Source of the DNA: Acidobacteriota bacterium
Lineage (GTDB): Bacteria; Acidobacteriota; UBA6911; RPQK01; JAJDTT01
Assembly (NCBI GenBank): GCA_965222655.1
Contig: CBDCUP010000019.1
Span: 280,825-344,824, forward strand
Reading direction: 5' to 3'
Length of the DNA stretch: 64,000 bases
In this document: positions 21,596-56,535 of the stretch, piece by piece
How the letters are laid out: each line of letters begins with the position of its first letter
Position numbering within the stretch: position 1 is the first letter of the stretch
Notes under the pieces: generated by a model
What the model saw: the letters and a program-made list of their open reading frames with translations, nothing else
Databases searched by the model: none
Told to the model about the DNA's origin: nothing
Translations under genes and position numbers: made by a program

Positions 21596-21984
21596 CCTAG
21601 GGGCTTCCCGTGTTGCGTGCGCTTCCCTGGTGTACATGCTGTCGCCACTACCCCGGCGCAGCGACTGGGTGCCTGCTCCGCTCACTTCCCCAGCCCTATC
21701 AGCCTTCCCCGGTCTAGGAGCCGGGTCGGCCTGCGCATCGTCCTTTTCGAGGCTTGCTCAGCGTTCACTCGCGTTACGGCCTGCACACTCGCGCGGTCAC
21801 CAATTCGTGACTCGCTTCACCAGAGGCTTCAACCATTTCGTTACCTCCATAGTTGCTCCGGTTGCTTCCGGCTGGAGCGGTTGCCGGGTGGGACTCTCAC
21901 CCACTGGGAAAGCGCCGCCTTACCACGGCGCACCCTAGAAGCGGTCATTCAAGTTTCCCGCGGAAACGTCGAATGAACGACCGC
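21596..21984. repeat. about 390-bp inverted repeat, copy A (partner at 25109-25498)
   Basis: About 98% identical to the reverse complement of 25109-25498; the 119-aa ORFs inside it on opposite strands are mirror images. Confidence 0.85.
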
Positions 21985-25108: not shown

Positions 25109-25498
25109 AGCGGTCGTTCAATCGACGTTTCCGCGGGAAACTTGAATGACCGCTTTTAGGGTGCGCCGTGGTAAGGCGGCGCTTTCCCAGTGGGTGAGAG
25201 TCCCACCCGGCAACCGCTCCAGCCGGAAGCAACCGGAGCAACTATGGAGGTAACGAAATGGTTGAAGCCTCTGGTGAAGCGAGTCACGAATTGGTGACCG
25301 CGCGAGTGTGCAGGCCGTAACGCGAGTGAACGCTGAGCAAGCCTCGAAAAGGACGATGCGCAGGCCGACCCGGCTCCTAGACCGGGGAAGGCTGATAGGG
25401 CTGGGGAAGTGAGCGAAGCCGGCACCCAGTCGCTGCGCCGGGGTAGTGGCGACAGCATGTACACCAGGGAAGCGCACGCAACACGGGAAGCCCCTAGG
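25109..25498. repeat. about 390-bp inverted repeat, copy B
   Basis: See 21596-21984; a partial related motif (gttcgacgtttccgggaaaatttgaatgaccgctt) recurs at about 27640-27710. Confidence 0.85.
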
Positions 25499-29748: not shown

Positions 29749-29886
29749 GAGTCGAGTGACTATAACCTTACAGTTAAGAGAGCTTTAAGTCTTTTAGAAT
29801 CAACGACATCAAACCGGACACTAGTGGGCCACGACCCAAACAATGGAGTGCCTTTCCCTCGATTTGATCGAGCATTCAAGAAAGGG

Positions 29887-29962
29887 TGGTCCCGGTGGGG
29901 TTCGAACCCACAGACTCCCGATTTTGAGACGGGCGCATGTGCCAATTCTGCTACGGGGCTTC
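29887..29962 (-). tRNA. tRNA-like gene, unresolved (good T-arm; acceptor strands not complementary)
   Basis: T-arm gtggg-ttcgaac-cccac and 3' cgggacc-a present; 5' strand reads gccccgt; anticodon loop ambiguous (ucUCAaaa). Confidence 0.35.
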
Positions 29963-30038
29963 TGGCCGGCTCGGGAGGAATTGAACCTCCAACGCGCAGG
30001 GCTTCAACCTGCCGCTCTACCCTTGGGGCTACGAGCCG
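29963..30038 (-). tRNA. tRNA-Phe(GAA)
   Basis: Hand-folded: acceptor cggctcg/cgagccg, anticodon arm gcagg-ttGAAgc-cctgc, T-arm ggagg-ttcaatt-cctcc, CCA encoded. Confidence 0.8.
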
Positions 30039-30055
30039 GAAAAATCTACGACAAT

Positions 30056-30132
30056 TGGTCTGGGCGGGAGGATTCGAACCTCCGAACACCCGGCTCCAAA
30101 CCGGGGAGTGAACCAGACCCACCTCCGCCCAG
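30056..30132 (-). tRNA. tRNA-Pro(TGG)
   Basis: Acceptor ctgggcg/cgcccag, anticodon arm cccgg-ttTGGag-ccggg, T-arm ggagg-ttcgaat-cctcc, CCA encoded; D-arm imperfect. Confidence 0.65.
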
Positions 30133-30212
30133 ACAAATCCAAGAGCCTCTGCCTGGACCCGGTTGGGAGCGGCAGACTCCCTCCTTGGAGAGGCGGAGAC
30201 TCAATCGTCCTC

Positions 30213-30291
30213 TGGTACCCCGGACGGGAATTGAACCCGTAGTTCACCAGGGTGAAAACCTGGCGACCATCCCAATGAAGTCGACCGGGGC
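30213..30291 (-). tRNA. tRNA-Glu(TTC)
   Basis: Acceptor gccccgg/ccggggt (G-U at 1-72), anticodon arm ccagg-ttTTCac-cctgg, T-arm acggg-ttcaatt-cccgt, CCA encoded. Confidence 0.6.
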
Positions 30292-30294
30292 TCT

Positions 30295-30371
30295 TGGCGG
30301 TACCGGCGGGGATCGAACCCGCATTCTCTACCTCGACAGGGTAGCTGCCTTCCCACTTCGCACACGATACC
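30295..30371 (-). tRNA. tRNA-Asp(GTC)
   Basis: Acceptor ggtatcg/cggtacc, anticodon arm ctacc-ctGTCga-ggtag, T-arm gcggg-ttcgatc-cccgc, CCA encoded; D-arm irregular. Confidence 0.6.
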
Positions 30372-30577
30372 GAATCCGCACTGCTGCAATCTCATGTTTG
30401 ACAGCTAGTGGACCGTAACACCTGAATTGCTAGCGCCTGAGCGTCCCTCGAGCCCGATCTCTGCGTTGCGCTTCCTCGCTATAGTCACGGCTATGCCTGC
30501 GTCAGCACGCCTTGACCTCGGGCCCGAATGGCTCACTCATCCACTACCGATTCAAGTGTTACAGTCCACTAGATAAC

Positions 30578-30650
30578 TGGTCCTGGACCGGGAATCGAAC
30601 CCGGGTCACTCGCTGATCAGGCGAGGGTCTTGCCACTAGACGACTCCAGG
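30578..30650 (-). tRNA. tRNA-Ile(GAT), acceptor with one mispair
   Basis: D-arm gtct-agtggca-agac, anticodon arm ctcgc-ctGATca-gcgag, T-arm ccggg-ttcgatt-cccgg. Confidence 0.55.
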
Positions 30651-30690
30651 TTTCTTCTCGTCCTCATCCTCATCCTCATCCCTCAGAATC

Positions 30691-30767
30691 TGGCGCGCCC
30701 CCAAGGATTCGAACCCTGATCCACGGGGTTGGAACCCGTGATGTTTGCCATTACACCAGGGACGCGC
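30691..30767 (-). tRNA. tRNA-Trp(CCA)
   Basis: Acceptor gcgcgtc/ggggcgc (1 mismatch), anticodon arm acggg-ttCCAac-cccgt, T-arm caggg-ttcgaat-ccttg, CCA encoded. Confidence 0.65.
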
Positions 30768-30775
30768 ACTTTCTC

Positions 30776-30850
30776 TGGTTGGGTCGGAGGGACTCGAACC
30801 CCCATCGACCTGGTTCGAAGCCAGGAGCCTTTCCGTTGAGCCACGGGCGC
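30776..30850 (-). tRNA. tRNA-Arg(TCG)-like, aberrant or chimeric (acceptor strands do not pair)
   Basis: 5' half gcgcccg...cctgg-cuUCGaa-ccagg is Arg-like; 3' part ggggg-ttcgagt-ccctc cgaccca-a-cca cannot pair with gcgcccg. Confidence 0.4.
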
Positions 30851-30852
30851 TC

Positions 30853-30927
30853 TGGAAGCGGCCCAGGGAGTCGAACCCTGATCTCCTGATTCAAAATCAG
30901 GCGTCATAGCCGTTTAACCAGGCCGCT
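30853..30927 (-). tRNA. tRNA-Gln(TTG)
   Basis: Acceptor agcggcc/ggccgct, anticodon arm cctga-ttTTGaa-tcagg, T-arm caggg-ttcgact-ccctg, CCA encoded. Confidence 0.75.
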
Positions 30928-30939
30928 TCAAAGAAAAAC

Positions 30940-31018
30940 TGGTACCCCTGGTAGGACTCGAACCTACACTGGATAGGGTCTGAACCTATCGCCTCTGCCA
31001 GATTGGGCTACAGGGGCA
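30940..31018 (-). tRNA. tRNA with anticodon CAG (Leu-like anticodon on a short-variable-arm type I scaffold)
   Basis: Acceptor gcccctg/caggggt, anticodon arm atagg-ttCAGac-cctat, T-arm gtagg-ttcgagt-cctac, CCA encoded; lacks the long variable arm expected for Leu. Confidence 0.45.
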
Positions 31019-31053
31019 CAAAAATCGTTGGCTGGGGCTCAGGGACTCAGCAA

Positions 31054-31127
31054 TGGAGTCCCAGGCCGGATTCGAACCGGCGTTCGACGGGTTGCAGCCG
31101 CCTGCCTGGCCACTCAGTCACCGGGAC
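31054..31127 (-). tRNA. tRNA-Cys(GCA)
   Basis: Acceptor gtcccgg/ctgggac, anticodon arm ggcgg-ctGCAac-ccgtc, T-arm gccgg-ttcgaat-ccggc, CCA encoded. Confidence 0.6.
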
Positions 31128-31130
31128 TCT

Positions 31131-31206
31131 TGGGGGGTCCGCGGGGAATCGAACCCCGCCGGTGCGGGCCACAACCGCACCCTCGCCCTGCGAACGGACT
31201 CCATAG
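31131..31206 (-). tRNA. tRNA-His(GTG)-like with truncated or absent D-arm (possible pseudogene)
   Basis: Anticodon arm (gg)tgcgg-ttGTGgc-ccgca(cc), T-arm cgggg-ttcgatt-ccccg, cggaccc-c-cca; only about 20 nt are available 5' of the anticodon stem. Confidence 0.35.
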
Positions 31207-31296
31207 TGGAGGAGGGAGAGGGACTCGAACCCTCATGCGCTGTTAACGCTGCCGGTTTTCGAAACCGGGCCCCGCCCCACTGGGGTCAACCCCTCC
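31207..31296 (-). tRNA. tRNA-Ser(CGA), type II with long variable arm
   Basis: Acceptor ggagggg/tccctcc, anticodon arm ccggt-ttCGAaa-accgg, long variable arm, T-arm gaggg-ttcgagt-ccctc, CCA encoded; 90 nt. Confidence 0.7.
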
Positions 31297-31435
31297 TCTG
31301 CTGAACCGATCCAGGACCTCACTGTTGGAGCCGGTGGCCCAACATCCCGGCCCTGGAGATTATTTATGTGGCCTTCCCTCCTTTCCGAGGAGCGCCGAAG
31401 ATCAATCCGGCGCCCCTCTCGAGTCGCGGTTGCGG

Positions 31436-32568
31436 CTAGTCCTCGACCGTCTTGTTACCGACCAGCGACCGTACCTGTTCGGTCAGCTCGCCCGAGCCGA
31501 AGATGAAGGTGGTCTTGGCGCCCGACAGGATTTCCTGCAGGCCCTCCAGTTCCTTCATCCGCGCCAGCACCGGGTTGTCGGCCATCAGCCGGGCGGTGTT
31601 GACCTGCGAGCGGACCGCGGCGGTCTCTTCACGTCGCTGAATCAGGTTGGCCTCGGCCCGCTTCTCGGCCTCGATCACCTGGTTCAGGATGGTCTTCATT
31701 TCACCCGGCAGGATGATGTCTCGCACACCCACCGAACGGACCGCGATACCAAAGTCCTCGGCTCGCGAGGCGAGCGCGTCCCGGACCTCGGTGCCGACCA
31801 CCTGCTTTTCAGCCAGCAGTTCGTCGATCCGACGAGTTCCCACTGCCGCCCGAAGCGCCAGCTGGGCCTCTCGGTAGACGGCCTGCTCGTAGTTGGTGAC
31901 CACGGTCAGGGCCAGCGTCGCGTCAGCTACCTGGTAGGTCACCAGCAGGTTGACCCGCAGAGTGACCTTGTCGGCGGTCATGATCTCCTGGCCGGCGACT
32001 TCTGCAACCTGCTCCCGCAGGTCGGCGGTCCAGAACTCGATCTTGCCGGCCTGCTTCCAGAAGGCGTGCAGACCCGGCTCCAGGACCTCGACCAGCCGCC
32101 CCTCCAGGAAGAGCAGGACCCGCTCATAGGTTCGAACCCGGACCGACTCCAGGCACTCGGCAGTTGCCGAGCGACCCAGGATGGACTCCAGTTTCGGGTG
32201 CTGGAAGCGGAAATCACGGACGTTGAACCGCTCCACTTCCAGCTCGTACGGCTTCCGCCAGAAGGCGTGACGGCCGCGTCCCAGGACCGAAGCCAGTCGC
32301 CCTTCCTTCCAGAGCAGGGCTCGTTCCTGCTCGGCCAGATCGACCAGGACCAGCTCGTCCCGCAACACCTCGTCCTCGACCAGGAGGTCGAGCAGCCGGT
32401 GCTCGAATCGAGTGGTGAGCCGGTTATAGACCTCGATCTTGACCCGGTCGGGATCCCACAGGCGTTCCACCGTTCGGTAGAAGCCTGGCTGCAGCACCCG
32501 CTCGAAATCTCCGAAGCGGAACCGCAGTCCGATCTGGTGCTTTTGAATTCGCGTCTTTAGAAACATGA
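31436..32568 (-). CDS. SPFH/band-7 (stomatin/HflK-like) domain protein
   Basis: SPFH core (QEIMTADKVTLRVNLLVTYQVAD ... AVRSVGVRDIILPGEMK) and coiled-coil tail; ORF-track start 32785 is probably an over-extension; Met at 32566 preferred. Confidence 0.7.
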
Positions 32569-33193
32569 CTGCGCTCCTTTCTGTTGCCGGAGAGAGTCTT
32601 GGTGCCTGGGGGAGAACTTGAACTTCCGAGTCGCGGCGGATGAAGCTGCAACCCCCGTTCAAATCTTCCCATTTCGCCAAACTTCCAACTCTCCAGGAAC
32701 ATGGATTGTCAGGATCTGCGACACCGCATCGAAGGAACCGCTGATCCCGTGACCATTCGAGACCCCTTGCCCCGAATGAACTCATTTCATTTTCTCCAAT
32801 AGCTCAGTTTCTTCTCCTGTTTCGACGGGCCAGTGGCCCGGCATGGCCGTCCTGCCCCCTCTGGCCGGCGGAGGCTGGGTTGAGACGACCCACCCGTAGC
32901 GTTGGCAATCGTCTTTCTGAGGCGAGCCGGTCTCCGTCGAAGGCACGAGAGATCGGTTCGTCCCATCAGAACGCTGCTTCCACGACTTCGGAGCCGTCGG
33001 TATCCCCCCGCCTGCAAGGCCGCCTTCAGGGTGCTTTCCGAGGAGCGATTGATCACAACCGAAAAACGGTCGCGAATCCTCTCACCATCGGAGAGCGTGC
33101 AAGTCGTGCCGCGCCGGATGCCACTGGGTCCGTCCATTGTCAGTAACTTCCGTCAAAGGGAAGTGTTAGGACCCTAAAACGAGGCCTAACCGT

Positions 33194-33267
33194 TGGACAT
33201 CAGGCAGGAATCGAACCTGCGACCGACGGGTTATGAGCCCGTTGCTCTGCCATCTGAGCTACTGATC
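33194..33267 (-). tRNA. tRNA-Met(CAT), initiator-like anticodon stem; acceptor stem irregular
   Basis: D-arm gctc-agatggc-agagc, anticodon arm acggg-ctCATaa-cccgt (three G-C pairs), T-arm gcagg-ttcgatt-cctgc; the 3' acceptor strand has 2 extra nt relative to the 5' strand. Confidence 0.5.
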
Positions 33268-33447
33268 CTCAGCCGACGCGGGGACTTGAAACCGTCACGG
33301 AACACACCGCTTCAACTAGCTGAAAAGCGGGGAAGCGGGGCGCCGCCGGAACCGACCGCGTCAACTGCCACGACCTGTGTAAATGCCTAACTGTTGCCGG
33401 GACACTACCAGTCGCGTGTACTGGGAGCGTGCTACTGGGTATTCGGG

Positions 33448-37383: not shown

Positions 37384-37531
37384 TTAACGCAGTGCAACCT
37401 GGGCTGCATCTAAACGATGCACTCCCACACCATTGATCTCCCCTTGTACCCGCTTTGTTTAGTAAGTCTGTCTACACTCGCCGCCCCAGCTGCGGGGTGT
37501 AGGACTTAGATGTCTAAGTAGTTGTTCTAAA

Positions 37532-38044
37532 TCAGAGTCCTGCGCAGGTGCTCTTGACGCCGCCAATTTCCAAGGCATCTGATCCGAAATCGATACGACG
37601 GATAATCCCCTCTTTGTCGACGACGAGCGTCGTTCTCTTGGAGATGCCCCGATCCGGATCATACACTCCATAGGCTTGACTGACCGTCCGGTGGGGGAAA
37701 TCACTCAGAAGAGGGAATTCGACCCCGAGCTTCTCGCGATACGCCTTGAGCGAGAATCTAGCATCAACGCTGATTCCGAATATTTGCGTATCCTTGTCGT
37801 TGAAGTATGCGATATCAGACTGATATCGCTGAAGTTCCGTCGTTCAGCCTCCGGTAAACGCGAGCACGAAAAAGGCAAGAACAACATTCTTCTTGCCTCC
37901 GAAGTCACTCAGACGTACCTTGTTTCCGTCCTGGTCGGATAGTTCGAAGTCAGGCGCTACATCACCCACGTTGAGGTTACTTGATTGGGCTTGAGCGAAC
38001 CCGATCATGAAACAACAAACGACAAGAGTTCTGAGCAGCTTCAT
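37532..38044 (-). CDS. secreted AhpC/TSA-family peroxiredoxin, candidate selenoprotein (in-frame TGA at 37844-37846 at the catalytic Cys position)
   Basis: Read-through gives [19 protein letters not shown]...[103 protein letters not shown]...; the FTGGUTTE site corresponds to Prx FTxVCPTE; the ORF track stops at the TGA. Confidence 0.65.
37809..37829 (-). promoter_or_regulatory. SECIS-like hairpin 14 nt downstream of the in-frame UGA
   Basis: mRNA UGA-ACGACGGAACUUCA-GCGAUAUCA-GUC-UGAUAUCGC: 9-bp perfect stem with GU in the apical loop. Confidence 0.5.
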
Positions 38045-38065
38045 ACTCTTGATTCTAGGACGTTG

Positions 38066-38323
38066 ATGCCCAGGAAGCAAATCAATTTCTACACACGACC
38101 CGGTTGCCACCTGTGCGAGGATGCTCTCAAAGTATTGCAAGATCTCCGAAGGGAATTCAAGTTCAGTCTCACAATCGTGGACATCTCTGATTCAGAGGAC
38201 CTGGTCGCCCGCTATGGCAACGACATCCCGGTAGCAGAGCTCGAGGGCCGGAGAATTTTCAAGCACCGAACGGATCGACGAGTTATGCGACGAGTTTTGA
38301 GCCGGCTTTGTGCAGCGGAGTAG
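38066..38323 (+). CDS. glutaredoxin-like (thioredoxin-fold, CxxC) small protein
   Basis: [13 protein letters not shown]...IVDI..D..L..RYGN.IPV pattern; ORF track extends to a TTG at 37985. Confidence 0.6.
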
Positions 38324-38495
38324 TAGGCTATAGTGACTACCAGATTCGCAGGCTGAGTTCTCATTGGATCGGCATCGCGTTTTTCAAGAAATGAAAACCT
38401 TCAACCTGCATCTTGTAACCTGCTAACCTGTAACCTATGACATTCATCCCCGAATCTTTCCCCGTGAGAACCTCGAAGGCCGAGCAGGAAACAAC

Positions 38496-39038
38496 ATGAA
38501 GATCTACACGGGTAGAGGTGACACTGGTTTGACCTCACTTTTCAGCGGGCAGCGTGTTGGAAAGGACGCCCTTCGGGTCGAGGCCTATGGAACGCTAGAC
38601 GAGCTGAATTCGATTCTGGGGAGTGCGCTGGCTTTCAGCCAGAATGCTGAAGTGGCCAGTATCCTCAAGGATCTTCAAGACAAGCTCTTTCGCTCCGGAT
38701 CCGATCTGGCTACGATTACCGGTGAGAGGGTTCGACGTCTGGGCGAGCCGGATTGGAGGGGACTCGAGACTACGATTGATCGGTTGGAGTCCGATCTTCC
38801 CCCCTTGAAGAACTTCATACTCCCCGGCGGTTCGCCCGCTGCATCCTTGATTCAGGTCGGACGCTCGGTATGCCGGCGAGCGGAGCGGTTGGCCGTGAGC
38901 CTGGCCAACCAGGAAGGCGACGTCAATCCGCATCTCATCGTTTATTTGAATCGGCTTTCCGATCTGCTTTTTGTTCTGGGACGCTATGAAAATCTCAAAG
39001 AGGGTGGGCAGGAGACCATCTGGAAGGAGGAAGCTTGA
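38496..39038 (+). CDS. ATP:cob(I)alamin adenosyltransferase, PduO-type
   Basis: MKIYTGRGDTGLTSLFSGQRV...AYGTLDELNS signature. Confidence 0.8.
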   Translation: MKIYTGRGDTGLTSLFSGQRVGKDALRVEAYGTLDELNSILGSALAFSQNAEVASILKDLQDKLFRSGSDLATITGERVRRLGEPDWRGLETTIDRLESDLPPLKNFILPGGSPAASLIQVGRSVCRRAERLAVSLANQEGDVNPHLIVYLNRLSDLLFVLGRYENLKEGGQETIWKEEA

Positions 39039-40015
39039 AGACTTTGGGTCTCGAGGCGTGCCCAAAGTGTAGAGGCTCGGGCTGGATTGTCCAGGCCGAT
39101 GCCGAACGAGACCAGGTGGCCCCCTGTCCCGAGTGCAGCTCCAAGCTTCGGATGCAGCGACTCCTGGCGAATGCCAAGATCCCGCCTCGCTACCTTTCCC
39201 GCGGCTTCGACGTCTACTCGATTCACCACCCCCTGCAGGGGCGTGCTCTCCGCCGGGCGATTGAATACGTGGAGGCTTTTCCAGCCGTCCCGCGAGGACT
39301 TCTCTTCCTGGGCCCCTGTGGAGTAGGGAAGACTCACCTGGCGGTTGCGATTCTGAAGGCGGTTGTCCAGGCCAAAGAGGTTTCGGCAAGGTTCGTGGAC
39401 GAAGCGGAATTGCTGCGGCGGCTGATGTATTCCTATGGCCCCGATTCTCCGGAGACAGAAAGGGAGCTCTTACTGCCTCTTCTTTCGGCCGATCTCGTGG
39501 TCTGGGACGACCTCGGCACGGGCAGACCCACCGAGTGGGTGGCGGAGACGATCCGGACGGTCTTGAATCACCGATACACCTACAACAAGCAGACTCTTCT
39601 AACCAGTAACTGGCCCGTGGAGACTCAAGTAAGAAACCGCCTGGGAAAGGAATCGCTGAAGGATCAAACTCTCGCTGAACGGATTGGCTTGAGGTTGTAT
39701 TCCCGCGTTATGGAGATGTGTGAACTGTTGCAAGTGGACGGACCCGATGCACGGACTGAAATTCACAAGGCTGGGTTGGATTTCCAGCAGGATCACAAGC
39801 AGGGCTCAACGATGAGCCTGCCCCCGGGAATTCTGCGCTGCACCAAGTGCGAATCACGCCAAGTCAGGCCGGTTGACTACTCTCGCCCTCGAGGTTCGGG
39901 AGAAGGCGAACATGTTGAAGTTTCCTGTCTGTGCGAGGACTGCGACGAGCACTTCCTGGCCCGCTTCTTCTCGCAGGGTTCTCGGGTTGAGTATCCCGGC
40001 ATCGCGGCATCCTAG
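39035..40015 (+). CDS. DnaC/IstB-family AAA+ ATPase flanked by N- and C-terminal zinc-ribbon motifs
   Basis: Walker A GPCGVGKTHLAVAI, Walker B LVVWDDLG; N-terminal CPKC...CPEC and C-terminal CTKC...CLCEDC; start overlaps the PduO stop by 4 bp. Confidence 0.6.
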   Translation: MKTLGLEACPKCRGSGWIVQADAERDQVAPCPECSSKLRMQRLLANAKIPPRYLSRGFDVYSIHHPLQGRALRRAIEYVEAFPAVPRGLLFLGPCGVGKTHLAVAILKAVVQAKEVSARFVDEAELLRRLMYSYGPDSPETERELLLPLLSADLVVWDDLGTGRPTEWVAETIRTVLNHRYTYNKQTLLTSNWPVETQVRNRLGKESLKDQTLAERIGLRLYSRVMEMCELLQVDGPDARTEIHKAGLDFQQDHKQGSTMSLPPGILRCTKCESRQVRPVDYSRPRGSGEGEHVEVSCLCEDCDEHFLARFFSQGSRVEYPGIAAS

Positions 40016-51819: not shown

Positions 51820-54800
51820 TTGCTTTCAAAACCCGGATACCGAAATCCCAGAGAGATCATGGCTGTGCGATCTGAATCTCGCTCTCACTTACCTTCTATT
51901 CTCGGCGTTGTTCTGTGCATGATGCTCTGCGGAGCGTCTGCCGTCGCCGCCTCCAAGCTTGATGAATCGACTGTCGAGTTCAATCGGGATATCAGGCCCA
52001 TCCTCTCGGACAAATGCTATGCCTGTCATGGACCCGATGAGAACAAGCGGCTGACGAAGCTGCGATTTGACACCGAGGAGGGCGCGCTTGCGGATCTAGG
52101 AGGCCGCTTCGCGATCGTACGCGGGAGTCCCGGGCAGAGCGGGATTGTCAGCAGAATCACCACCGACATCGAAGCACAGAAAATGCCACCGGTGTACTCC
52201 GGAAAGGAGCTCACCGAACATCAAGTTGATCTGCTCCGGCGCTGGGTCTCTCAGGGTGCCAAGTGGCAGAGGCACTGGGCGTTCATACCGCCCGGACGGC
52301 CAGAGCTGCCCCACCTGGAGGACAGCAGGTGGGCTCGGATCGGACTGGACCATTTCATTCTCCAGCGGCTCGAAAAAGAAGGCCTGGACCCTTCACCCGA
52401 AGCGCACCTTGCCACCCAGATCCGCCGGCTGACACTCGATCTGACTGGCCTCCCGCCGACCCCCGCCGAAGTGGATGCCTTTCTCACTGACAGCTCTCCA
52501 GATGCTTACGAGAAGGTAGTCGATCGTCTGCTCCAATCCCCGCGCTACGCCGAGAAGATGGCGAGCCGCTGGCTGGATGCGGCCCGATATGCCGATACCA
52601 ACGGCTATCAGACGGATGCCGAGCGAAGCATGTGGAGGTGGCGCGATTGGGTCATTGATGCCTTCGACAAGAACATGCCCTTCGATCAGTTCACGATTGA
52701 GCAGATCGCCGGAGACATGCTGCCAAACGCTACTCTCGAGCAGAAGATCGCCAGCGGTTTCAATCGCAACCATCGCGGCAATGGGGAAGGCGGAATCGTT
52801 CCCGAAGAGTACTCCGTCGAATATGTAGTCGATCGGGTAGAGACGACTTCAACCGTGTGGTTGGGGCTGACGATGGGATGCGCCCGCTGCCACGATCACA
52901 AGTACGATCCCATCAAACAGAAGGATTTCTACCGGGTCTTTGCCTACTTCAACAACGTTCCCGAGCGGGGACGCGCCTTCAAGTTCGGCAATTCCGCGCC
53001 CTTCATCCCGGCGCCCACGCCGAGCCAGCTGCAGCAGCTGGGAAAGCTGGAGGCGAAACTGGCCGGGGCCGAGGAGCAGTTCGAAGCACTAGGTTCCGAG
53101 ATCGAGGAGTCGAAGCGGATCTGGGAAGCCTCTCTGGCCCAGTCCACGATCCTGGATTGGTCCTTCGACCGGGACCTGCTTCTTCGCTACCCGCTCGACG
53201 GCTCGCTGGCCGGTCAACCCAGCGGTTTCAAGGATAAGAAACCAGTCCAGGTCCGGCTGCTCGACGGCATGCCCCATTTCGTATCCGGGCGGCTGGGGGC
53301 TGCTGCCAGCTTCGACGGAAAGCGGTTTCTGGAAGCTGGAGATGTTGCGGAACTGGGCTTTTTCGACCGATTCTCTCTTTCCGCCTGGGTTTACCCGACA
53401 GCCCCGGACGGCCCCATCCTGGGACGGAATTTCGATACCCCGGAGGTTGGCGATCATGGGTTCAAGGGCTACGGCCTGTATCTGAGGGAGGGCAAGGTAC
53501 AACTGAATCTGGTGACTCGTTGGTTGGACGACTCCCTTCGAATCGAGACGGCGGAGCCGCTCGAATTGAACCGCTGGCACCACGTCGCTGCGACCTATGA
53601 TGGCACCCGTGTCGCAGAAGGTACCAGGATCTACGTCAACGGTCAGGCCAGCGCCCTCAACGTGAGGCTGAACCTGCTCAACCAGGATTTCCGTCTCCCC
53701 AACTCCTTCCGGATCGGCGCTGCGGGTGCTCGTCGCTTCTCCGGTCTAATCGATGAGGTTCGGGTCTACACAGAAGTCTTGTCCCCTCAGGAAGTCGCCG
53801 TGATCTCGCTGGCCGACAGCGTGAATGAGATCGCCGCCCTGCCTCCCGAAGGCCGCAGTCAGTCCCAGACTGACAAGCTTCGGTGGTGCTTCCTCGACCA
53901 GTACGCCGCCCCAAACATCCACAAGGCCTGGCAGCAGTTGCAGGATCTGCGCCGGCAGAAGCAGGAGATGGTCCGCGGCTTCCCCACCGTTATGGTGATG
54001 CATGAGGGAAAGACCCGCGATACCTTTGTGCTGGTCCGCGGCGCCTACGATAGACCCGGGGAAAAGGTGCTTCCCGGGGTGCCCTCTTTCCTTCCCCAAC
54101 TGCAGGAAGGTTGGGCCAACAACCGGATCGGATTGGCCCGCTGGCTGGTGGCTCCCGAGAATCCACTCACCGCACGGGTGACGGTGAACCGTTTCTGGCA
54201 GACGTATTTCGGCGTCGGGCTGGTCAAGACCGCCGAGGATTTTGGTTCGCAGGGTGAATGGCCGCTGCATCTGGAACTTCTGGACTGGCTCGCCACCGAG
54301 TTTGTTTCCAGCGGCTGGGACGTCAAGGCACTTCAGAAAACGATCGTGATGAGCGCGACCTACCGACAGTCCTCGAAGGTGCGGCCCGAGCTGCTGAAAC
54401 GAGATCCGGAGAATCGGTTGCTGGCTCGGGGTCCGCGTTTCCGGTTGCCGGCAGAAGTCGTGCGTGACCAGGCGCTGGCGGTTTCGGGTTTGCTCGTAGA
54501 GCAGGTTGGCGGACCCTCCGTCAAGCCTTATCAGCCGGCTGGACTCTGGTCGGATTTAGCTGGAGGCGAGGATTACCAGAGAGGCGAAGGCAGCGATCTC
54601 TACCGCCGAAGCCTCTACACCTTCTGGAAACGGACCTCGGCCCCCCCCTCCATGACCACTTTTGACTCCGGCCAGCGTGAGACTTGCTCGGTTAGGCAGG
54701 AACGGACCAACACCCCTCTTCAGGCCCTCAACCTGATGAACGACGTAACTTATGTGGAAGCATCCCGGGTGCTGGCTCAGCGGATGATGGAGGAGGGCGG

Positions 54801-55059
54801 TAAGACGCCAGCGGAGCGGATTGCCTTTGCCTACAAGGTGGTCACGGCCCGGACACCCCAGTCCAGCGAGGGCGGGATTCTACTCGAGGGTTTCCAGCAC
54901 TACTTGCGAGATTATCGGGACGATCGCGGGGCCGCCCTGAAGCTGGTTTCCCAGGGCGAGCATCCTCGCAATCTGGCTCTGGACGTCGCCGAGCTGGCCT
55001 CCTATGCCACGGTTGCCAGCCTGATCCTCAATCTTGACCGGGCCATTACCAAGGAGTGA
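51820..55059 (+). CDS. PSCyt1/DUF1549/DUF1553 domain protein (planctomycete-type cytochrome c domain; LamG-like middle domain)
   Basis: Signal peptide; CYACHG heme motif; characteristic DUF1549 and DUF1553 stretches (WLDAARYADTNGY..., RLLARGPRFRLPAEVVRDQALAVSGLL...). Confidence 0.85.
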   Translation: MLSKPGYRNPREIMAVRSESRSHLPSILGVVLCMMLCGASAVAASKLDESTVEFNRDIRPILSDKCYACHGPDENKRLTKLRFDTEEGALADLGGRFAIVRGSPGQSGIVSRITTDIEAQKMPPVYSGKELTEHQVDLLRRWVSQGAKWQRHWAFIPPGRPELPHLEDSRWARIGLDHFILQRLEKEGLDPSPEAHLATQIRRLTLDLTGLPPTPAEVDAFLTDSSPDAYEKVVDRLLQSPRYAEKMASRWLDAARYADTNGYQTDAERSMWRWRDWVIDAFDKNMPFDQFTIEQIAGDMLPNATLEQKIASGFNRNHRGNGEGGIVPEEYSVEYVVDRVETTSTVWLGLTMGCARCHDHKYDPIKQKDFYRVFAYFNNVPERGRAFKFGNSAPFIPAPTPSQLQQLGKLEAKLAGAEEQFEALGSEIEESKRIWEASLAQSTILDWSFDRDLLLRYPLDGSLAGQPSGFKDKKPVQVRLLDGMPHFVSGRLGAAASFDGKRFLEAGDVAELGFFDRFSLSAWVYPTAPDGPILGRNFDTPEVGDHGFKGYGLYLREGKVQLNLVTRWLDDSLRIETAEPLELNRWHHVAATYDGTRVAEGTRIYVNGQASALNVRLNLLNQDFRLPNSFRIGAAGARRFSGLIDEVRVYTEVLSPQEVAVISLADSVNEIAALPPEGRSQSQTDKLRWCFLDQYAAPNIHKAWQQLQDLRRQKQEMVRGFPTVMVMHEGKTRDTFVLVRGAYDRPGEKVLPGVPSFLPQLQEGWANNRIGLARWLVAPENPLTARVTVNRFWQTYFGVGLVKTAEDFGSQGEWPLHLELLDWLATEFVSSGWDVKALQKTIVMSATYRQSSKVRPELLKRDPENRLLARGPRFRLPAEVVRDQALAVSGLLVEQVGGPSVKPYQPAGLWSDLAGGEDYQRGEGSDLYRRSLYTFWKRTSAPPSMTTFDSGQRETCSVRQERTNTPLQALNLMNDVTYVEASRVLAQRMMEEGGKTPAERIAFAYKVVTARTPQSSEGGILLEGFQHYLRDYRDDRGAALKLVSQGEHPRNLALDVAELASYATVASLILNLDRAITKE

Positions 55060-55062
55060 TTC

Positions 55063-56535
55063 ATGGATCCCAGGCTTGATCGCCGATTGTCGATGACTCG
55101 CCGCCATTTCTTCGGATTGGGGAGCACTGGCATTGGTACCGCGGCACTGGCTACTCTTCTGGATCGCAGTCTGCTGGGTAGGACCGGACTGAAGGGTCCG
55201 GGTGATGGACCCGCTCAAGGCGGGTTGTCGGGGCTCCCGCATTTCGCTCCGAAAGCCAAGCGGATCATCTATCTGTTTCAGTCGGGTGCTCCTTCCCAGA
55301 TGGACTTGTTCGACTACAAACCGAAACTGGAGGCTCTGGCCGGTACGGAGCTGCCCGACTCGATTCGCAAGGGGCAGCGTTTGACCGGGATGACGGCCAC
55401 CCAATCCAGTTTTCCGGTGGCTCCATCGGTATTCGAGTTCGCCCAGCACGGCGCGTCCGGTGCCTGGGTCAGCGAGTTGATGCCGCATACGGCCAAGATT
55501 GCCGATGACCTCTCGTTCATCAAATCGATGCACACGGAGGCCATCAACCATGATCCTGCGATCACGTTTTTCCAGACCGGGGCCCAACTGGCAGGACGAC
55601 CCAGTATCGGCTCCTGGCTTTCCTACGGCCTAGGCAGCGAGAACCGGGATCTTCCGAGCTTCGTGGTTATGGTCTCCAGTGGCGAGGACGGTGCTGGACA
55701 ACCACTCTACGATCGACTCTGGGGAAGCGGGTTTCTCCCCACCCGGTATCAGGGGGTCAAGTTCCGCTCGATCGGGGACCCGGTGCTCTATCTATCGAAT
55801 CCGCCAGGACTGAGCAGACCCAACCGGCGCCGATTCCTGGACGATTTGAACCGGCTCAACCAGCTGCAGCTGGAGGAGTTTGGGGATCCGGAGATCGCGA
55901 CCCGGATCGAGCAGTATGAGATGGCCTATCGAATGCAGACGTCCGTCCCCGATCTAACAGACCTTTCAGGCGAACCGGAGCACGTATTCAAGCTCTACGG
56001 CCCCGAGGCAAAGAAGCCCGGGACATATGCGTACAACTGTTTGCTGGCCCGTCGTCTGACGGAACGCGGGGTCCGCTTTATTCAGCTTTTCCACCGCGGT
56101 TGGGACCAGCACACCACGCTGCCCGAGGAAATCAAGGTCCAGTGCAAAGACACCGATCAAGCTTCGGCGGCCCTGGTTCAGGATCTGAAGGAGCGGGGTC
56201 TGTTGGAGGACACGCTGGTAGTCTGGGGAGGCGAGTTTGGCAGGACGGTCTATTCACAAGGCAAGCTGACCGCGACCGATTATGGACGCGATCACCATCC
56301 CCGCTGCTTTTCCATCTGGCTGGCAGGCGGAGGCATCAAACCCGGTGTCATCTACGGTGAGACTGACGACTACGGCTACAACATCACGCGCGATCCAGTG
56401 CATGTCCACGATCTGCACGCGACCCTGCTCCACTGCCTGGGCATCGATCACACCAAGCTGACCTTCAAATACCAGGGGCGAGATTTCCGCCTGACCGACA
56501 TCCACGGAAAACTGGTAAAGAAGCTCCTAGCGTAG
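55063..56535 (+). CDS. DUF1501 (sulfatase-like) protein with Tat signal
   Basis: [20 protein letters not shown] twin-arginine signal; the DUF1501 pair partner of the DUF1553 protein, 3 bp downstream. Confidence 0.85.

Follow-up and report, generated by a model that had tools for sequence, protein, structure and literature searches.

The 64,000-nt stretch analyzed here (the window: positions 280,825 to 344,824 of the forward strand of contig CBDCUP010000019.1, assembly GCA_965222655.1, from an Acidobacteriota bacterium) carries on its minus strand a peroxiredoxin (Prx) gene whose reading frame contains an internal TGA codon. The mechanically defined open reading frame (ORF) at 37844-38140 (minus strand) stops at this TGA (37846-37844), and the same frame continues beyond it for 103 further codons to the protein end KSTCAGL and a stop TGA at 37534-37532. 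Translation through the internal TGA gives a coding sequence of 170 codons plus the terminal TGA (37532..38044, minus strand; terminal stop at 37532..37534), in which residue 67 would be selenocysteine (Sec). The start codon is likely the ATG at 38044-38042 rather than the TTG at 38140. An initial annotation of this DNA had proposed a Sec-containing Prx, pointing to an ORF that is ended by a TGA at the column of the peroxidatic cysteine (Cys) and to about 100 in-frame codons of Prx sequence past it. Both observations were borne out: the TGA aligned with the Cys of Mycobacterium tuberculosis AhpE, and a match to the AhpC/TSA family was found to span it.

When the TGA was read through, a full AhpC/TSA domain was restored, with a match to Pfam AhpC-TSA (PF00578) at an E value of 1.7e-37 and 128.6 bits against a gathering cutoff of 26, covering profile positions 1-123 of 124. 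The best match in the PDB was M. tuberculosis AhpE (E 2e-29, residues 21-152). All seven top PDB matches were AhpE (Rv2238c) chains, the first six from M. tuberculosis with E values of 2e-29 to 3e-28, and the next class, BCP, followed at 1.7e-22. Homologs are labeled "mycoredoxin-dependent peroxiredoxin" or AhpE in the source databases, and the top full-length matches among 5.8 billion proteins were AhpE-type peroxiredoxins. By sequence similarity, therefore, the product is a member of an AhpE-like branch of the AhpC/TSA family, nearer to AhpE than to AhpC/Prx1, BCP/PrxQ, Tpx, or Prx6. In an NCBIfam scan of the product, no model reached its cutoff. The scores were 70 bits for PrxU (NF040737; cutoff 270) and 43 bits for Prx-SUH (NF045827, CxxU; cutoff 298), so that neither identity was accepted; the comparison with PrxU-type proteins suggested in the initial annotation thus gave way to one with AhpE-type enzymes, the nearest relatives. 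Identity with the UxxC/UxxU Prx-like thiol:disulfide oxidoreductases was also rejected, as the motif reads GG-U-TTE (U, Sec) and has no Cys within three residues.

We then compared the gene with its relatives. When one genome per species was scanned, at least 563 relatives were recovered, and the best 80 were combined with the window and three metagenome contigs into a set of 84 sequences, to which the counts below refer. These best 80 were almost all metagenome-assembled genomes (MAGs) of Acidobacteriota, assigned to Terriglobia, Blastocatellia/Pyrinomonadaceae, Chloracidobacterium, or unclassified lineages, and identities across the set ranged from roughly 50 to 94%, the highest being that of the ortholog at locus L005 (94%). 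A TGA occupied the catalytic column in all 84 sequences. Cys occupied the same column in five database proteins (P0001, P0003, P0017, P0027, and P0035) and in AhpE (FTGIC), and more distant members read FTGGCT or FTSGCR there. The alternation of Sec and Cys that had been put forward as a check was thus seen in the alignment, with TGA throughout the Sec-forms and Cys in the distant homologs. Across the 84 sequences, the entropies at codon positions 1/2/3 were 0.53/0.37/1.45 bits over the 40 codons upstream of the TGA and 0.78/0.59/1.43 bits over the 103 codons downstream. The coding periodicity is therefore alike on both sides of the TGA, indicating that the 3' part is translated and is under the same coding selection; this also answers the question whether the sequence past the TGA is conserved in orthologs, as both frame and periodicity are kept. 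Two of the carriers (L016 and L065) are MAGs labeled "uncultured Clostridia bacterium" that have typical orthologs of the gene, and all other carriers with a phylum-level label are Acidobacteriota; the Clostridia labels are probably taxonomic mislabels or binning errors.

The residues expected of a peroxiredoxin active site were found around the TGA (all positions on the minus strand). Column alignment with the Cys homologs places the in-frame UGA (37844..37846) at the peroxidatic position, as Sec67 of the motif FTGG-U-TTE (TxxU). Both the T/S-x-x-C/U motif (T64-G-G-U67) and the catalytic Arg are present: Thr-64 (37853..37855) is invariant in alignment A2, and Arg-137 (37634..37636, codon AGA), the conserved catalytic Arg of peroxiredoxins, is invariant in alignments A1 and A2. 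In addition, Cys-167 (37544..37546) has a counterpart in 84/84 orthologs, encoded by TGC in 74 and TGT in 10 and lying 3-20 residues from the C terminus in every case; no such Cys occurs in the actinobacterial AhpE homologs. This conservation suggests that the C-terminal Cys-167 is probably the resolving residue, acting via a Sec-Cys selenenylsulfide. At the other end of the protein, a Sec (secretion)-type signal peptide of 19 residues (37988..38044) was predicted from a basic n-region, a hydrophobic core, and an AQA cleavage motif. The first approximately 23 residues have no counterpart in AhpE, residue 2 of which aligns to residue 24 of the query, and the signal-like N terminus proposed at the outset recurred, as a basic and then hydrophobic segment, in nearly all complete orthologs. 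These features suggest that the signal peptide is cleavable and that the mature enzyme most likely acts outside the cytoplasm.

Downstream of the UGA, the mRNA can form a hairpin at 37809..37829 (minus strand), identified by folding and comparison. It consists of a 9-bp stem, GCGAUAUCA/UGAUAUCGC, closed by the loop GUC (37820-37818), begins 14 nt past the UGA, and has a UGA-to-loop spacing of 23 nt and a minimum free energy (MFE) of −11.8 kcal/mol. The perfect 9-bp hairpin with a GUC loop described in the initial annotation was thereby confirmed at 37829-37809. Six perfect hairpins with stems of 9 bp or more and loops of 3-9 nt were present in the 64-kb window, versus a shuffle mean of 2.2, and by an arithmetic estimate the chance that one of them lies in the 22 positions permitted after a given TGA is roughly 0.2%. 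Another perfect 9-bp hairpin (37873-37898) was found within the coding sequence of the Prx, between 27 and 52 nt before the UGA. It was rejected as a functional element, being present only in the window and L005, with a median MFE of −4.65 and free third codon positions; it is probably a chance palindrome and, being unconserved, provides an example of one in the same data set.

The downstream hairpin was examined across the family in alignment A3, a gap-free alignment of the 60 nt from the TGA in the 84 sequences. A core, UAUCAG-NN-UGAUA, was nearly invariant. The consensus structure of the family had an upper stem of 5 bp and a lower stem of 4 bp, with a bulged U between them; under this model, 92.3% of cells were paired, versus at most 61% with slid partners, and its covariation score was equalled by 0/500 shuffles, a count that is not a probability because the sequences are phylogenetically related. 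The un-bulged 9-bp register suited only a minority of the sequences and was rejected as the family structure, with 78.7% of cells paired and most lower-stem cells unpaired. The perfect 9-bp stem reported initially therefore stands for the window as a lineage-specific form and does not hold for the family, whose consensus has the bulged U. Published criteria for a bacterial selenocysteine insertion sequence (SECIS) call for 3-9 nt in the apical loop and 4-16 bp in the upper stem; a G among the first two loop nucleotides, as a rule with G or U after it; 16-37 nt from the UGA to the apical loop; and an MFE of −7.5 kcal/mol or lower (PMC13188914). On all four counts, the window hairpin lies within these ranges (3-nt loop and 9-bp stem, GUC, 23 nt, and −11.8 kcal/mol). 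The loops of the 84 sequences were GGC in 55, GUC in 22, and GGA in 7, that is, G(G/U)N without exception, and the 23-nt spacing was common to all of them; the MFE was −7.5 kcal/mol or lower in 81/84 when the 60-nt stretch was folded and in 68/84 when the 27-nt segment was folded in isolation. The position and loop chemistry claimed for a SECIS were thus upheld by the published criteria, and the hairpin proved to be conserved in related genomes.

Third codon positions provided further evidence for selection on the RNA. Within the core, codons +7 to +10 read TAT in 84/84, CAG in 84/84, NNT in 84/84 (GCT, TCT, or GAT), and GAT in 83/84, with third-position entropies of 0-0.09 bits, compared with about 1.4 bits on average for the third positions of the whole gene. 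Apart from the TGA, no other codon of the gene has a third-position entropy as low as these four. By comparison, the Tyr codon at +63 of the same gene was TAC in 67 sequences and TAT in 15. In the lower stem, columns 21 and 36 paired as GC in 53 sequences, AU in 12, GU in 3, and CG in 2. Since both columns are synonymous third positions, GC bias was tested as an explanation: the association between them had an odds ratio of 22 (p 1.4e-6), versus 0.2-4 for column 21 with 13 other third positions, and it held within each tertile of third-position GC content, so that GC bias was rejected as the source of the covariation. We also inspected the Cys-forms, which as controls amount to a small number of four distinct genes (L087, identical to L088 over the stretch, and L089-L091). 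These had lost the features of the hairpin: at the frozen positions, they used TAC, CAA, GCG, GCC, or ACC. The closest Cys-form, L087/L088, encodes the same R-Y-Q-S-D peptide as the window and folded to −1.7 kcal/mol, versus −11.8 kcal/mol in the window.

Together, these results indicate that the UGA is recoded at the catalytic column and that the hairpin following it is under selection as RNA. We consider the locus to be best explained as a peroxiredoxin gene with a Sec-decoding UGA and a SECIS, and we assign this reading a probability of about 0.9 from sequence comparison. According to this model, the UGA at 37846-37844 would be decoded as Sec instead of stop because the mRNA hairpin at 37829-37809 would act as a bacterial SECIS, recruiting SelB with Sec-tRNA(Sec). 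After removal of the 19-residue signal peptide, the enzyme would be extracytoplasmic, where Sec67 in the T-x-x-U motif, together with Arg-137, would reduce peroxide, and the oxidized selenium would be resolved by the invariant C-terminal Cys-167.

Several results weigh against this reading. The 81-nt fold around the hairpin was unexceptional (z = −1.84), with 10/200 shuffles equally stable. The weight of the evidence is comparative, and there the relatedness of the sequences has to be borne in mind. RNAalifold alone recovered the invariant core of 6 bp and nothing further, its covariation term was negligible, and the upper stem never varies and hence offers no covariation evidence. An Rfam search of 37400-38400 at E values up to 10 gave, as its sole match, a chance snoRNA on the opposite strand, and the hairpin matched no Rfam family. 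The Cys-form controls are few, and one of them, L089 (the gene of Cys-form P0017), has a different hairpin where the SECIS would lie, over codons +5 to +12 after the Cys codon, GGCGUACC-AGGCG-GGUAUUGCC, of −10.8 kcal/mol, which may have been left by a reversion from Sec to Cys or may have arisen by chance. The Pro of the PxxxTxxC/U motif is missing, its place being taken by Val-60 (37865-37867) in the window; in this column, Val was found in 83/84 Sec-forms and Pro only in L012, and most Cys-forms retain Pro. The Pro-to-Val change may be an active-site adaptation accompanying Sec. One Cys-form (P0044) also bears Val at this column. Finally, a search with ARAGORN gave no tRNA-Sec, either in the window or in 60 related loci, and tblastn with Escherichia coli SelA, SelB, and SelD queries gave no match in the window or in any of the related loci, in agreement with the initial observation that neither selA, selB, selD, nor tRNA-Sec is visible in this window.

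The missing Sec machinery in the window and flanks, together with the purely bioinformatic nature of the evidence, would suit a read-through of the UGA that does not involve Sec, in which a near-cognate tRNA inserts Trp, Cys, or Arg and the hairpin slows termination. However, an enzyme with Trp or Arg in place of the catalytic Cys would be inactive, and insertion of Cys would need no recoding, the relatives simply having a Cys codon there. The loop and spacing specific to a bacterial SECIS also recur in 84/84 sequences. Moreover, use of Sec is known in the phylum: SelA, SelB, and a Sec-containing FdhA are documented for Solibacter usitatus (PMC1794560), and Occallatibacter riparius appears in a listing of Sec use (PMC12013277). 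We found SelA to be abundant in Acidobacteriota, the best 120 matches to the Solibacter SelA all being near Solibacter. We consider read-through of this kind improbable.

Still less probable is that the palindrome simply follows from the conserved peptide Y-Q-x-D-I, with no function as RNA. Such an origin would agree with the location of the hairpin within a conserved protein segment and with the lack of compensatory changes in the upper stem. It would leave unexplained why four codons keep fixed synonymous third positions when all other third positions vary, why Tyr elsewhere in the gene favors TAC, and why L087/L088 encode the same RYQSD peptide with different codons and no hairpin; in addition, the lower stem covaries beyond GC bias.

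The remaining explanations were each given only a minimal probability. A pseudogene, or a TGA arising from a sequencing or assembly error, might be suspected from the lack of a gene call at the site in the source annotation. Conversely, the TGA recurs at the same column in 84/84 independent assemblies, and the downstream frame is intact and shows the same periodicity as the upstream part; the roughly 50-94% identities exclude an origin of all copies from one contaminant sequence. A genome-wide reassignment of TGA (code 4 or 25) would fit the Trp (W) found at the catalytic column of JGI (Joint Genome Institute) products, but the contigs behind these W calls are about 1 kb long and offer little else to guide a gene caller. 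TGA is also a real stop codon here: it terminates the window gene and, in all, 27/84 orthologs, and it is the commonest stop among window ORFs of 250 aa or longer (20/42). This excludes a reassignment throughout the genome, and the UGA must be recoded by virtue of its local context. Lastly, gene callers do output the halves of such genes (P0041 and P0042), but a pair of polypeptides, a 66-aa N-terminal and a C-terminal fragment, is hardly credible, as neither would hold the catalytic residue, no start codon or ribosome-binding site is conserved past the TGA, the first in-frame start past it in the window yields only 44 aa, and the domain is continuous across it.

The UGA of the Prx gene was the only one in the window for which Sec decoding was accepted. 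Of 96 other mechanical candidates for TGA-bridged frames, none had a redox motif or plausible coding on both sides; a frame at 51820-56535 (plus strand) bridged by a TGA at 55057 was rejected as a selenoprotein gene because its second ORF begins with a twin-arginine-like signal, which points to two adjacent genes.

We next compared the predicted enzyme with known systems. The founding Sec-Prx, PrxU of Eubacterium acidaminophilum, was verified experimentally in 2001 (Sohling et al. 2001, as cited in PMC13188914). A 2006 survey listed 12 Sec-Prx members and five independent Cys-to-Sec conversions (PMC1794560, Table 1), a 2016 survey counted 91 members in 78 organisms (PMC5029168), and the Sec-Prx (TxxU) family is included in a 2026 review (PMC13188914). 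Like the PrxU family, the protein described here has the AhpC/TSA fold, Sec in place of the peroxidatic Cys in T-x-x-U, an in-frame hairpin after the UGA, and Cys-form homologs. Unlike PrxU, it belongs to an AhpE-like branch and has a signal-like N terminus, an invariant C-terminal Cys, and Val for the motif Pro, and its host is a member of the Acidobacteriota, whereas those of the PrxU family are Clostridia or Deltaproteobacteria. With M. tuberculosis AhpE (Rv2238c; PDB 1XXU, 1XVW, and 4X0X), it shares an alignable active-site column, LSDF motif, and catalytic Arg; AhpE itself is a cytoplasmic, mycoredoxin-dependent 1-Cys peroxiredoxin that uses Cys and lacks both the N-terminal extension and the C-terminal Cys. 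The mycothiol/mycoredoxin system that serves as the reductant of AhpE is actinobacterial. The UxxC/UxxU Prx-like oxidoreductases and Prx-SUH are, likewise, predicted bacterial selenoproteins of the thioredoxin fold related to AhpC/TSA. The hairpin resembles the consensus bacterial SECIS (the bSECISearch model, with E. coli fdhF as the archetype) in being an intragenic stem-loop 3' of the UGA with a G-[G/U] loop, and differs from it in having a UAUCAGNNUGAUA core specific to the gene family and its bulged U on the 3' arm. A bulged U also occurs in the stem of the E. coli fdhF SECIS, as it does in the family consensus here. The FTGGU motif is absent from the searchable text of the 2006 selenoprotein sequence supplements, and an AhpE-like Sec clade is not described in PMC1794560, PMC5029168, PMC13188914, and PMC12013277.

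The genomic neighborhood was also analyzed. The start of the Prx gene is separated by a 21-bp divergent spacer (38045..38065), with Shine-Dalgarno-like AAGAG (minus strand) and AGGA (plus strand) sequences, from that of a gene for an 85-aa glutaredoxin-like DUF836 protein (38066..38323, plus strand; Pfam PF05768, E 1e-17) with CHLC near its N terminus. A divergent glutaredoxin-like CxxC gene at this distance was thus correctly recognized in the initial annotation (start 38066 versus the ATG at 38044). The glutaredoxin-like gene adjoins the Prx gene in 5 of 82 Sec loci (the window, L005, and L012-L014) and is also found beside the closest Cys-form, and it is a feature of the sub-clade. As the glutaredoxin-like protein has no signal peptide, it is doubtful that it would act directly as the redox partner of an exported Prx; the redox pair suggested earlier therefore appears weak, in view of both its rarity and the probable difference in compartment. 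Clustering of the neighbors across the 82 loci revealed no partner that is conserved family-wide. Downstream of the glutaredoxin-like gene in the window, at 38496-40015 (plus strand), lie genes for a cob(I)alamin adenosyltransferase (PF01923) and an IstB/DnaC-like ATPase (PF01695), and in the Cys-form locus L087 (1-480) an IstB-like gene adjoins the glutaredoxin-like gene. The presence of an IstB-like gene beside the glutaredoxin-like gene in both suggests a small neighborhood conserved within the sub-clade. In roughly a quarter of the loci, a BCP/PrxQ-like Cys-type Prx gene occurs within 3 kb of the Sec-Prx gene (for example, L031 4536-5000 and L090 1037-1495, with about 19 other loci).

Elsewhere in the window, an array of 13 tRNA genes was found at 29885-33268 (minus strand), comprising Leu-caa, Phe, Pro, Glu, Asp, Ile, Trp, Gln, Leu-cag, Cys, His, Ser-cga, and Met; tRNA-Sec is not among the 13. 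A weak tRNA-like match in Rfam at 30785-30845 was not listed by ARAGORN. At the gathering threshold, Rfam matches over the whole window were limited to tRNAs and group II intron domains. Two matches to group II intron D1-D4-4 (RF02003), at 21769-21906 (minus strand) and 25188-25325 (plus strand), both scored 102.8 bits and lie in inverted orientation about 3.3 kb apart; they may reflect a mobile intron present in two copies, or else a duplication in inverted orientation.

The gene and its relatives were found to be poorly represented in existing annotations. The source contig has no gene call across the approximately 900 bp that hold the Prx gene, and no record was found for any of four possible products, truncated or W-translated, that were looked up by exact match. 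Among the relatives, the 101-aa products P0041 and P0042 are post-TGA fragments of genes that are intact in the corresponding DNA (L001 and L002), and JGI products entered as full-length peroxiredoxins (P0002, P0004-P0010, P0012, and P0021), which derive from contigs of about 1 kb, have W at the catalytic column. In L003, the W codon is a TGA at the DNA level (534-536), and the W entries apparently arose because the caller chose a code in which TGA is Trp. The expectation that standard gene callers would truncate or miss the gene was thus realized, in that it is uncalled in its source contig and recorded elsewhere as fragments or with a false W.

Sec-containing peroxiredoxins, Cys-to-Sec conversions in this family, and the use of Sec in Acidobacteria were known already; the gene described here belongs to an AhpE-like Sec-Prx clade that is widespread in Acidobacteriota and has no curated model. 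The gene is a clean example of a real gene lost by annotation pipelines; conceptually, it is a small addition and introduces no new principle. Given how widespread the clade is and how it is lost in annotation, inventories of the soil selenoproteome and of oxidative-stress functions are probably underestimates. More tentatively, and at somewhat less than even odds, we propose that these genes constitute an uncatalogued clade of exported AhpE-type selenoperoxidases with a Sec/C-terminal-Cys pair and a bulged-U SECIS of its own, which would be present in hundreds of species from several classes of Acidobacteriota. If this is true, current annotations, in which the genes are uncalled, split, or translated with Trp, hide the clade systematically, and selenium availability would directly condition the defense of the cell envelope against peroxide in soil, where Acidobacteriota are a dominant phylum.

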